Positions 50,057-56,014 are shown, counted from the stretch's first letter. The stretch is 64,000 nucleotides of DNA from Pristiophorus japonicus (GCF_044704955.1 NC_091987.1:181722001-181786000); one strand, 5' to 3'. The notes: a model not told the origin generated them from the letters alone. Numbers and translations are program-made.

Positions 50057-50280
50057 ATACTGGGAGGAAGATTTCTCTTGTGCACAATGCGTCGCAAAAT
50101 TGTAAATACATTTCTACAGGAACAGGTTTCAGTTTTCATTGCACGCAGCGATTGAACTTGCGCCATTCTTTGGACTGAGCTGGACTGCCTGTGTCTGAGT
50201 GCCACCTGCTGGACTATATGTGGTATAACTACCAGCCAGTGCTGTAACCCTTTCTCACCATTTCCAGCTCACTCCTGTGT

Positions 50281-50692
50281 CATCATCATAGGCAGTCCCT
50301 CGGGATCGAGGAAGACTTGCTTCCACTCCTGAAGTGAGTTCTTTGGTGGCTGAACAGTCCAATACAAAAGCCACAGACCCTGTCACAGATGGGACAGATA
50401 GTCGTTAAGGGAAGGGGTGGGTGGGACAGGTTTGCCACACGCTCTTTCCGCTGCCTGCGCTTGATTTCTGCAGGCTCTCAGCGATGAGACTCAAGATGCT
50501 CAGCACCCTCTCCGATGCACTTCCTCCACTTCGGGCGGTCTTTGGCCAGGGACTCCCAGGTGTCAGTGGGGATGTCGCAGTTTATCAGGGAGATTCTGAG
50601 GGTGTCCTTGTAACGTTTCTGCTGCCCACCTTTGGCTCGTTTGCCGTGAAGGAGTTCCGAGTAGAGCGTTTGCTTTGGGAGTCTCGTGTCTG
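50281..50692 (-). mobile_element. RTE LINE 3' fragment
   Basis: Matches 16431-16800; (GAT)n tail. Confidence 0.85.
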
Positions 50693-51450
50693 TGTGAAGG
50701 CACCTAACTCTTCATAGGAATTTAACCTAAAAAAGGAGCCTGATCCTAAGGGTGCAGGGAGCAGTGGCGTAACTAATACTGCGGCATTGGGGCCCTCACC
50801 TGAAGGGGGGCCCACCACCTGCTTCCTCGCGAACTCGTTGGCGGTGTGGTTCAGCTGGAAAACGCTCTCGTCCGTCCGCTTGGTGAAAGTTTTGAACCCG
50901 TCGACTCTGCTCTCCCCCCTCCTGTAGGTCGAGGGGGCTCTGCGGGTAGCTGAGCATCAGGAAGAAGTTGTCCCCCACCATGTCGTCCTTCTCGGCTTTC
51001 CTCTTGCCCTGCTTCCAAGCCTTCTCGCCGTTGCGGGTGAGGAGGTGCTGGAAGGTGTCGCAGTGGGCCAGCACTGGGTGGCTCGTCATGTGGATCATCC
51101 ACAGGGTCAGCCCTTTCTTCCGCTTGGAGATGAAGTCCTCCTGGAAGCGGCCGGTGGTTTGCTTCTCGGGGACGTGGGGCACCGAGATGACGGGGAACTT
51201 CTCCACAAGCCGGCCGAACAGCCATTCGAAGTGTTTGTAGCGCCGGGTTCTCCTGCCACTCGGGGCCGTGCGGGCCGGCCGCCACGAAGATCTTGTCACC
51301 GTCCTTGACGAAGCCGGCCGCCTCACCCAGGATGAACGCCTCGCCGCTCGACTTGGTGAAGGTGGAGAATGGTTGAGGTCCTTGCTGACCGTGGCCGTGC
51401 TCTTGGAGGAGGAGGCGGTGGCCGAGGAGGAGGAGGACACCGACCCCCCG

Positions 51451-54121
51451 ACATAAGAACATAAGAACATAAGAATTAGGAACAGGAGTAGGCCATCTAG
51501 CCCCTCGAGCCTGCTCCGCCATTCAATAAGATCATGGCTGATCTGGTCGTGGACTCAGCTCCACTTACCCGCCCTCTCCCCATAACCCTTAATTCCCTTA
51601 TTGCTTAAAAATCTATCTATCTTTGACTTGAAAACATTCAATGAGCCAGCCTCAACTGCTTCCTTGGGCAGAGAATTCCACAGATTCACAACCCTCTGGG
51701 AGAAGAAATTCTTTCTCAACTCGGTTTTAATTTGACTCCTCCGTATTTTGAGGCTGTGCCCCCTAGTTCTAGTCTCCCCCACCAATGGAAACAACCTCTC
51801 TGCCTCTATCTTGTCTATCCCTTTCATGATTTTAAAAGTTTCTATAAGATCACCCCTCATCCTTCTGAACTCCAAGGAGTAAAGACCCAGTCTACTCAAT
51901 CTATCATCATAAGGTAACCCCCTCATTTCTCGAATCAGCCTAGTGAATCATCTCTGTACCCCTTCCAAAGCTAGTATATCCTTCCTTAAGTAAGGTGACC
52001 AAAACTGCACGCAGTACTCCAGGTGCGGCCTTACCAATACCTTATATAGTTGCAGCAACACCTCCCTGCTTTTGTACTCCATACCTTTCGCAATGAAGGC
52101 CAACATTCCATTTGCCTTCCTGATTATCTGCTGCACCTGCAAACTAACCTTTTGGGATTCATGCACAAGGAGACGGAATTCCTCATCGGCGCCAAACCCC
52201 GGAACCTCCCTCAAGGGCCGGCGCCTCACAACTTGAGCTGCCTCGGGGAAATCCCCTCCGTGCCTTTCAGTTCCGCGCGGAGGGGTTTCCTGTACGGGCT
52301 GCTCCTGCACACTCTCAACTTTGCCATCCTCGCCGGCCGTCCGGACACGCCATGGCGTACCATCTTGCCGTCCGGAGGAGGCGGGGGTCCCCGATGGAGA
52401 GCACTCTACGCAGGGGTCCTCCCACTATTCATCGGGGACTTGGCCTGGAGGGTGGTGCACGGAGCAGTGCCGTGCAACAAATTTTTAAGCCGGTTCACGG
52501 ACTCCCAGGCCGCCTGCAATTTCTGCGGTCTGGAAGAGTCCGTGTTCCATGTTTTTATGGAATGCACAAGGTTGCAGCCCCTGTTTTATTATTTGAAGGG
52601 GCTGCTCCTGAAATTCTGGCTGCACTTCAGTTCCACTCTCCTGATCTTTGGGCACCCTGTGCGGAGGGGAGCGGGTAGGTCCGAAGGCCTCCTCGTAGGA
52701 CTGCTCCTGGGCACGGCCAAGGGTGCCATCAGCCGGTCCAGGCAGCGGGCGGTCGAGGGGGTCCTTCAACCTGACTGCCTGCCTCTCTTCCGCTCTTACA
52801 TCCGGTCCAGGGTGTCCTTGGAGATGGAGCACGCGGTGTCCACCGGTACGCTCGCGGCCTTCCGCGAGAGGTGGGCACCAGACTGGAGTGCATCATCACG
52901 CCCGGCAACCAAATTTTAATGTGATTTTACGTTTTAAAGTTTAATTTGTTTTAATTGCCGGTGCTTTTAGTGTCCCCCTTCCCTTTTATAGGGGGCACGG
53001 GGGAAAAATTGTGATTTTAGCGCCCGGAAAAAAAAAACCACAAAAAAAGGAAAAAAAAGGGGCCTTGAAAATGTCGGCCGTGTCACCCAGGCGGGTGGCA
53101 CGGTTTAATGTTTATGTTTTTTTTTCAGGTAAACTCAAAAGAGTTTCATGCACAAGGACCCCCAGGTCCCTCTGCACCACAGCATGTTGTAATTTCTCCC
53201 CATTCAAATAATATTCCCTTTTACTGTTTTTTCCCCAAGGTGGATGACCTCACACTTTCCGACATTGTATTCCATCTGCCAAACCTTAGCCCATTCGCTT
53301 AACCTATCCAAATCTCCTTGCAGCATCTCAGAGTCCTCCATACAACCCGCTTTCCCACTAATCTTAGTGTCATCTGCAAATTTTGTTGCACTACACTCTG
53401 TCCCCTCCTCTAGGTCATCTATGTATATTGCAAACAGTTGTGGTCCCAGTACTGATCCCTGTGGCACACCACTAACCACTGATTTCCAACCGGAAAAGGA
53501 CCCATTTATCCCGACTCTCTGCTTTCTGTTCGCCAGCCAATTCTCTATCCATGCTAATACATTTCCTCTGACTCCGCGTACCTTTATCTTCTGCAGTAAC
53601 CTTTTGTGTGGCACCTTATCGAATGCCTTTTGGAAATCTAAATACACCACATCCATCGGTACACCTCTATCCACCATGCTCGTTATATCCTCAAAGAATT
53701 CCAGTAAGTTAGTTAAACATGATTTCCCTTTCATGAATCCATGCTGCGTCTGCTTGATTGCACTATTCCTATCTAGATGTCCCACTATTTCTTCCTTAAT
53801 GATAGTTTCAAGCATTTTCCCCACTACAGAGGTTAAACTAACCGGCCTATAGTCTGCCCCCTTTTTTAAACAGAGGCGTTACATTAGCTGCTTTCCAATC
53901 CGCTGGTACCTCCCCAGAGTCCAGAGAATTTTGGTAGATTATAACAAATGCATCTGCTATAACTTCCGCCATCTCTTTTAATACCCTGGGATGCATTTCA
54001 TCAGGACCAGGGGACTTGTCTACCTTGAGTCCCATTAGCCTGTCCAGCACTACCACCTAGTGATAGTGATTGTCTCAAGGTCCTCCCTTCCCACATTCCT
54101 ATGACCAGCAATTTTTGGCAT
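51451..54121 (-). mobile_element. CR1 LINE nested in the SNX18 fragment
   Basis: (ATAAGAAC)n tail at 51451-51475; RT ORFs 53204-54056 and 51555-51926. Confidence 0.95.
52172..53144 (+). mobile_element. Tx1-clade LINE 3' fragment nested in the CR1
   Basis: DLAWRVVHGAVPCN..CNFCGLEESVFHVFMEC (zf-RVT-like); perfect 14-bp TSD TTCATGCACAAGGA (52158-52171 and 53145-53158); ends AAAAGAGT. Confidence 0.9.
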
Positions 54122-55424
54122 TCCGGCCGCCAGACCCGTGCTCACTCGATAACGGCCCGTCCCGTCGAAACCTGAGAACCCACCGCCTCCCCTGCTCCCA
54201 CCGCACCCAGACAGCGGCTCGTCCGTCACGGTTGAGTTGTTGTCCCGGTCATCGTCATCGCTGCTGCCCGACACCTGGTGCTGCAGCCCTGCCAGGACCA
54301 GCCCCCACCCCCCCCCCCCCCGAGTCTGCCGCCCGTTTGGGCGAGAGGCGGGGGCAGGAGGTGTTGGCGGCAGGGCAGGCCGGCAGGGGGAAGCCGCTGG
54401 GGGTCTGAGGCTGAGGCGGCGCGGGGCTGTCGTAGCCGCCGGTCGGCACGTTGGCATAGCGGGAGGCTCGGCAGCGGCGGCACAGACACTGAGCGCTGCG
54501 TCGCCCCTGCTCCTGGCCCGCAGGATCTGCACGTACGAGGCCGGGAAGAGGCCCCTCTGGCTGTGGCTGTTGGCCTCCTCCAGCCAGCCCTCGATGTCGT
54601 GCTTGCTGTACACAGTCAGCACCTTGTCCTCCCGCACCGAGATCTCACCCACATTCTCGCTCTGGCAATCGTACAGAGCCCGAGCCTGGAGTACCATCGT
54701 CCCGCTGTTCGCACCCGGCTCAGCTCCGCTCCCGGACTTAGCAGTAACCCCCCCACCCCATAAATCCTCCCTCACACCGGTCCCGTTCCCCCTCACACCA
54801 GCTCCCCTAGACCCTGAACTCCCTCCAGCCCCCCGGACCCCCCCTTCGCTCGAGGGGTGGCTGCACGGGGTCTTCCCTGGCCGGCTGCACTTTTCCCGTC
54901 GTTCTGTGATTTTTTTAAATCTATGTTTTCATTGGGGCCCACATCCTCTCGTTACGCCACTGGCAGGGAGGGAGAGAGATGGGAGGGGCGCGGGAGGAGG
55001 GGGGGGATGGTGAACGGGAGGGTGGGGGCTAAGGGACCAGCAGGACACAAGGGATCAAATGCAGCAAGAGGTAGAGAAATGTTGGAGGGTTTTGCACGAG
55101 GACAGTAACTGGGCCAAGGGAGGTGGAACTTTTCAGGAATATTTTGGATGTCCTCTGATAGTGTAGGATAGCTTCCTTTCTAATACAAGGATGAACGTGT
55201 TCATGTTACACTGGTGGCTGTACAGTTATTTTAGCACAGATATTTCTACATTACAACAGCGGCTACACTTCAAAAGTACTTAATTGGCTGTAAAACACTG
55301 TGGGACATCTGGCGGTCGTGAAAGGTGCTATATAAATGCAAGTCATTTTTTTTTTTAACCTTATTAATAATTACATTACAATATCACCAGACAGGAATTT
55401 AACAGACACAAGTGCACTGGAGAC

Positions 55425-55627: not shown

Positions 55628-55707
55628 TGAATGCTGCAACCTTTCCCCACAGCAGTGTAAATCTCACACTGACGCTCACAGTGCCATCTGCCGGAACAGT
55701 ATCCAGT

Positions 55708-56014
55708 ACTCAAAGCCTCCCTGATAAAATGCAACATCCCCACTGACACCTGGGAGTCCCTGGCCAAAGACCACCCTAAGTGGAGGAAGTGCATCCTGGA
55801 AGGCGCTGAGCTCCTCGAGTCTCGTCACCGAGAGCATGTAGAAATCAAGTGCAGGCAGCGGAAAGAGCGTGTGGCAAACCTGTCCCACCCTCCCTTACCT
55901 CAACGACTGTCTGTCCCACCTGTGACAGAGACTGTGGTTCCCGTAAGAACTCACTTTTAGAGTGGAAGCAAGTCTTCCTCGATTTCGAGGGACTGCCTAT
56001 GATGGTGATGATGA
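55708..56014 (+). mobile_element. RTE LINE 3' fragment
   Basis: CTCAAAGCCTCCCTGATAAAATGCAACATCCCCACTGACACCTGGG through a (GAT)n tail. Confidence 0.85.

Follow-up and report, generated by a model that had tools for sequence, protein, structure and literature searches.

We report that a 64,000-nt stretch of sawshark DNA (hereafter the window) contains one copy of a non-autonomous hAT transposon in which about 1.5 kb from exon 1 of the host gene SNX18 has taken the place of the original interior, likely through one event, and which very probably then reached more than 100 new sites, likely mobilised in trans by the transposase of its own hAT family. Descriptions of gene capture by this transposon class in vertebrates likely include no spread of comparable size, and the family shows that most of a conserved coding exon of a vertebrate can be multiplied more than 100-fold by a cut-and-paste transposon. 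The preliminary description of the window knew of no account of such gene-carrying hATs; as far as the accessible text of PMC8277862 goes, they are already described in animals, and the novelty lies in copy number, cargo size and lineage (no function is shown). A titles-level literature search, with subscription papers largely outside it, returned no report of an SNX18-carrying hAT family or of gene-carrying shark hATs.

The element is bounded by a perfect 12-bp terminal inverted repeat (TIR), CAGTGGCGTAAC, at 50762-50773 (plus strand) and 54951-54962 (minus strand), and by an 8-bp target-site duplication (TSD), GCAGGGAG, identical at 50754-50761 and 54963-54970; both had been claimed and proved exact. 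With at most one mismatch, CAGTGGCGTAAC has 2 matches in the window versus 0.15 expected, a number reached in 0 of 100 shuffles. The parts of the element are as follows:

50754..50761, no strand: left TSD, GCAGGGAG, same as 54963-54970; other copies carry their own 8-mers
50762..50810, plus strand: left hAT end, the 12-bp TIR (50762-50773) and a subterminal part with two GGGGCCC motifs
50811..51454, minus strand: SNX18 cargo, 3' part, with a low-complexity end, PX (113-bp private deletion) and the BAR start
51455..54118, minus strand: nested LINE fragment, presumably CR1-like, a later insertion with RVT_1, a CATAAGAA-type tail and CAT on both sides
52172..53145, plus strand: inner LINE 3' fragment (zf-RVT), which we take to be Tx1/L1-like, between two copies of the 14-bp repeat TTCATGCACAAGGA (about 52158-52171 and 53146-53159)
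54119..54697, minus strand: SNX18 cargo, 5' coding part, with the ATG at 54697, SH3 and the linker (frameshifted)
54698..54918, minus strand: SNX18 cargo, likely 5' UTR (about 220 bp), with blocks now missing from the resident gene
54919..54962, minus strand: right hAT end, about 44 bp, 12-bp TIR at 54951-54962
54963..54970, no strand: right TSD, GCAGGGAG

The hAT-derived ends exceed the TIR on both sides (left about 45 bp in the window copy and about 66 bp in most copies, right about 44 bp), and the TIR itself, 12 bp and perfect here, is 14 bp long in most copies; with respect to the transposase gene, as oriented from element L085, the left end is the 5' one. When 51451-54121 is removed, 1530 bp remain with a GC content of 65% (47.5% in the whole window), in which, on the minus strand, Pfam recognises SH3, PX and positions 2-50 of BAR_3, bearing out the claim of an SNX18-derived interior of about 1.5 kb. 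The nested insert, with RVT_1 and zf-RVT, is real, but its outer LINE spans 51455-54118, so the wider cut first proposed loses 4 cargo bases. Both LINEs are later arrivals, since they are absent from other copies, and a 113-bp deletion at the PX start is found in the window copy only; full copies measure 1.59-1.67 kb. The reading of the interior as ATG, SH3, PX and BAR start holds for the coding part, but the non-coding 5' part, formerly called upstream sequence, most likely belongs to the 5' UTR and not to the promoter. Inverted LINE-like 3' fragments, 87-91% alike, lie on either side of the element (50280-50700 and 55680-56010) and are likely separate insertions of one common repeat. By eye, the 3' end of the inner LINE (52900-53145) is closely like a stretch of intron 1 of the parent gene (L069:6590-6830), again likely a common repeat.

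A left-arm search of the genome gave 137 candidates on many contigs, 40 of which were scored. A 22-mer spanning the left transposon/cargo junction had 96 matches at ≤ 2 mismatches versus 1 for its reversed control, and a BAR profile search found 94 loci besides three real genes; the union of the two comprises 119 loci, and capture-recapture puts the number at 127 if false hits are left in. Of these 119 loci, 104 were examined: BLAST finds the cargo at 97 of them, and the other seven consist of 2 truncated copies and 5 pattern matches due to chance. Six further copies (L046, L049, L052, L053 and two among the left-end matches) were verified, giving at least 105, a count that leaves out 15 loci known only from Pfam BAR matches; the total is estimated at about 120-130, on most large contigs.

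Both ends could be read in 63 copies, with 0 TSD mismatches in 23, 1 in 24, 2 in 7 and ≥ 3 in 9; a recognisable TSD is absent in 9 of the 63. The 47 TSDs with at most one mismatch are all different (cross-copy control 9/3906). The left transposon/SNX18 junction is the same in 63/63 and the right one in 58/63 of these copies, which points to one capture. No pair of copies has a common abutting flank, and for 15 of the 47 copies the flank, one TSD and the other flank run continuously end to end in sister copies of the interrupted repeat. Distinct TSDs, unshared flanks and continuous pre-insertion sites together show that the element inserted again and again, as opposed to one locus being duplicated. 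The preliminary description had proposed counting copies with the same TIRs and junctions and different TSDs, which these are, and had reasoned that a single genomic copy would speak against mobilisation; the element is multicopy with distinct TSDs.

The parent SNX18, whose existence had been presumed, is one intact gene without TIRs at C2:114.73 Mb, on a contig other than the window's, and its protein is 100% identical to the public 'sorting nexin-18a' of the sawshark Pristiophorus japonicus. Its exon-1 frame covers SH3, PX and BAR positions 1-158, and exon 2 lies about 68 kb downstream; the cargo comes entirely from within exon 1 (likely 5' UTR, SH3, PX and BAR start), its 3' cut falling mid-exon at parent position L069:6199. 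In the 30 kb examined around the parent there is no TIR match and no hAT remnant, and no copy sequence reaches into the donor locus beyond either junction. SNX18-locus homology past the TIRs, which would have indicated segmental duplication, is thus absent on both sides. The captured span (L069:4797-6199) appears to match the CpG island, with GC of 58-78% inside and ≤ 53% in the bins read outside, and GC3 of 0.80-1.0 within the span, falling to 0.48 and 0.32 immediately beyond the 3' junction while still inside that exon. A paralogue on C21 was rejected as donor, being only 71% identical over 396 bp. By the definition of a Pack-TIR, then, the element holds internal non-TE sequence within 100-5000 bp that has an identifiable parent (SNX18, C2:114.73 Mb) unflanked by a TIR element; regarding retrocopies, it spans no splice junction and has no poly(A), and with the cargo in one exon both template types are compatible.

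As to how the gene piece was acquired, a hAT element left with an excision gap, or with a fork stalled inside it, may have been repaired by template switching onto the open SNX18 CpG island and back, after which the transposase of the same hAT family would have moved the loaded product in trans, with copies gained through gap repair or through transposition during replication. Against such a route, microhomology at the junctions is weak, amounting on the 3' side to GCC followed by a mismatch and on the 5' side to a T/A tract, and there is no hAT remnant within the 30 kb around the parent. The earlier claim that the cargo was probably both captured and moved at the DNA level stands for the movement, given the distinct TSDs and many copies; for the capture, a DNA template is a candidate, the cargo being confined to one exon. 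It is conceivable, if unlikely, that the cargo was copied into the hAT from SNX18 RNA, as truncated cDNA or in RNA-templated repair, and only then transposed as DNA: all of it is exon 1 sequence, the start site probably lies upstream of it, LINEs are abundant near the copies, and the intron test of the template is inapplicable because a single exon is involved. However, poly(A) and an inner TSD are lacking, the 3' end breaks off inside the exon with no exon 2 sequence after it, the hAT interior was replaced rather than interrupted, and the cargo ends coincide with the edges of the CpG island. The poly(A) tail, intact 3' end and own TSD of a LINE-made processed pseudogene are not found, and cargo with its own TSD and poly(A) inside an otherwise empty element, the other observation that the preliminary description would have taken against itself, is likewise not what the junctions contain. 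Template switching at the DNA level stays our preferred route.

Elements with the same ends and AT-rich interiors are present in the genome, and longer ones contain broken frames with DUF4371 (E 1e-16) and Dimer_Tnp_hAT (E 5e-10). Elements L085-L095 have both ends in common with the cargo element, transposase-bearing ones carry their own TSDs (e.g., L087 and L092), and L086 spans about 3.8 kb. The family combines short TIRs (12 or 14 bp, within the 10-25 bp range of hATs), an 8-bp TSD that differs per insertion and ends in common with a transposase-coding hAT, as expected of the hAT superfamily, and appears Tip-like from its domains and ends rather than from a transposase tree. The autonomous partner envisaged earlier is represented by these transposase-bearing relatives, but an intact transposase was found in 0 of the 12 same-end relatives fetched, all of them decayed, so trans-mobilisation is what we infer. 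One transposase-bearing element is 88-94% identical to 8 others over its 3' end, and such elements are similar in age to the cargo copies (cargo 7.9% pairwise at non-CpG sites). Among the 100 of 107 left-end matches listed, 74 lead into SNX18 (72 at known cargo loci and 2 read) and 26 into a plain hAT interior (13 by position near transposase-derived loci and 13 read), a ratio of about 3:1, and no other cargo occurs between these ends in the same 100. The cargo, antisense to the lost transposase gene, leaves about 66 bp and 44 bp of hAT ends in place, a natural experiment indicating that this much is enough for mobilisation. A plain hAT 3' part followed by one and the same right flank, TTTGAGGG, is present at 8 sites spaced about 60 kb apart on C4 (132.27-132.71 Mb) and also at C13:148.75 Mb and C18:40.85 Mb (L073-L082 and L096 for all of these); it has been carried along within a larger tandem or segmental repeat.

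In only 5 of 885 coding columns do the copy majority and the resident gene disagree, and the majority contains the residues GQR, QCP, GLTL and PQSP, which are private to the resident among 10 chondrichthyan proteins. A linker block found in 48 of 63 copies is absent from the resident and is similar to GLVQLAG of galeomorph sharks, a resemblance from which it follows that the resident lost the block. About 125 bp of UTR kept by the copies is also missing in the resident. In another organism, a contig extends over the UTR block in question (L213:1886-1909) and stops at the transposon junction (one contig, from depth and difference tables), and the runs of organisms B and C have zero cover over the UTR and transposon end, a blank that is not evidence of absence. 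Compared with the cargo, the resident 5' UTR has 3 deletions of ≥ 10 bp versus 0.4 per copy (P about 0.008), an excess that exceeds the prediction of a simple same-age model. Judged from these alignments, the cargo is best read as a fossil of an older SNX18 allele of the sawshark's own lineage. Arrival of an already loaded element by horizontal transfer from another shark, with that species' SNX18, is very improbable: several indels do separate the resident UTR and linker from the cargo, and the listed relatives of the transposase are mostly from insects, hydra and coelacanth (the best one 68% over 65% of the query), but the few differing coding columns, the shared private residues, the galeomorph-like linker lost in the resident, and the single contig that covers the UTR block and stops at the junction all argue against it.

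A further scenario can be considered, although we regard it as rather unlikely. Capture of a CpG island may have been advantageous, with host-like sequence blunting silencing and so bringing the loaded form to 3:1 over its parent family, while small-RNA conflict from more than 100 antisense copies may have led the resident to lose the UTR and linker blocks it had in common with them. If true, the epigenetic conflict that gene capture causes in maize would have a counterpart in vertebrates (bioRxiv 10.1101/777037, in its accessible part).

Over 59 copies, divergence from the column majority is 4.2% at non-CpG and 15.6% at CpG sites. The raw pN/pS is 0.59, the N/S corrected for mutation class is 1.06, and the copies contain 46 stop codons; the corrected ratio and the stops show that the copies decay neutrally and are dead as protein genes. 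They preserve an older SNX18 state and offer a neutral, CpG-rich clock for sharks. Dating with a mutation rate of 7e-10 per generation (from the available text of PMC10587355) would turn the 4.2% into about 6e7 generations, which was rejected as too old to be credible. Internal deletions with the same breakpoints recur in 19 loci (CDS 551-929) and in 9 loci (about 870-1270), and as they are common to many loci, the shortened derivatives must themselves have been mobile. Pairwise distances, which are not a tree of copies, are equal within and between these subfamilies (7.9-8.0%), as in one burst.

We also find it highly doubtful that some copies are functional truncated SNX18 genes, acting as SH3-only or SH3-PX competitors. 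The copy L137 (C4:194.006 Mb) is 100% identical to the public 143-aa 'sorting nexin-18-like' protein P0148, the deletion derivatives L138 and L168 keep frames of 331 and 341 codons from the SNX18 ATG, and in organism A the contigs of one small run, of unrecorded kind, span the junction; a look-up listed no RNA data set with the sequence. Against this stand the N/S of 1.06, a value pooled over copies and not assessed for single ones, the early closure of the frame in most copies, and a captured span that probably has no promoter upstream of the UTR. Annotation of L137 as a gene in public records is itself an instance of how transposon copies inflate gene annotation. Separately, a Myotis brandtii entry (P0143, not in the window) joins the PCNA N-terminus to an SNX18 PX and must be either chimeric or mispredicted. 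An origin by segmental duplication of the SNX18 locus, or by independent retrocopying into places that happen to lie between TIR-like motifs, has nothing found in its favour and is extremely improbable for a family with identical junctions, distinct TSDs, unshared flanks, empty paralogous sites and no homology past the junctions.

Among known systems, the carrier resembles BuT2 of the hAT Tip group, which in the accessible sections of PMC3942097 has 12-bp TIRs, an 8-bp TSD and a partner transposase with DUF4371 and the hAT dimerisation domain. With the Pack-MULEs and Pack-hATs of plants, as presented in the accessible part of PMC8903248, the family has in common that it is non-autonomous, contains internal gene fragments and, for hATs, makes an 8-bp TSD. 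Many different cargoes are carried by those plant elements, as far as that text goes, whereas the sawshark family carries one (74/100 listed left ends, 0 others). Helitrons are rolling-circle elements without TIRs or TSDs. In bats they provide, within the accessible text of PMC4224331, the vertebrate precedent for gene capture amplified to high copy number, with 5' gene parts and 12,382 copies in all, so that such amplification is already known, via another mechanism than that of TIR-type hATs. Drosophila Ssk-FB4, as summarised in the available portion of PMC8277862, is alike in its one capture, repeated transposition and cargo of 5' region plus coding sequence; however, it is MULE-like, young, translated and under selection with 4 copies, while the sawshark family is an old, high-copy, neutral hAT.

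The closest comparison is with animal Pack-TIRs, of which the accessible text of Tan et al. 2021 (PMC8277862) gives 370, with hAT as the commonest carrier (208). Only 4 families there are multicopy (3 in frog and 1 in alligator, the illustrated frog case having 3 copies of 291 bp), the median cargo is 224 bp, and the elephant shark (calMil1) has 0 Pack-TIRs; in that survey, then, almost all such elements are short and present once, and the sole cartilaginous fish covered has none. The survey's unique-top-hit filter would likely miss a high-copy family. Like these Pack-TIRs, the sawshark element has host sequence between the ends of one TIR element, a TIR-free parent and a GC-rich 5' cargo and, like the multicopy ones, distinct TSDs; unlike those in the same text, it forms a family of at least 105 copies, has secondary subfamilies and carries about 1.5 kb of cargo, most of it coding.
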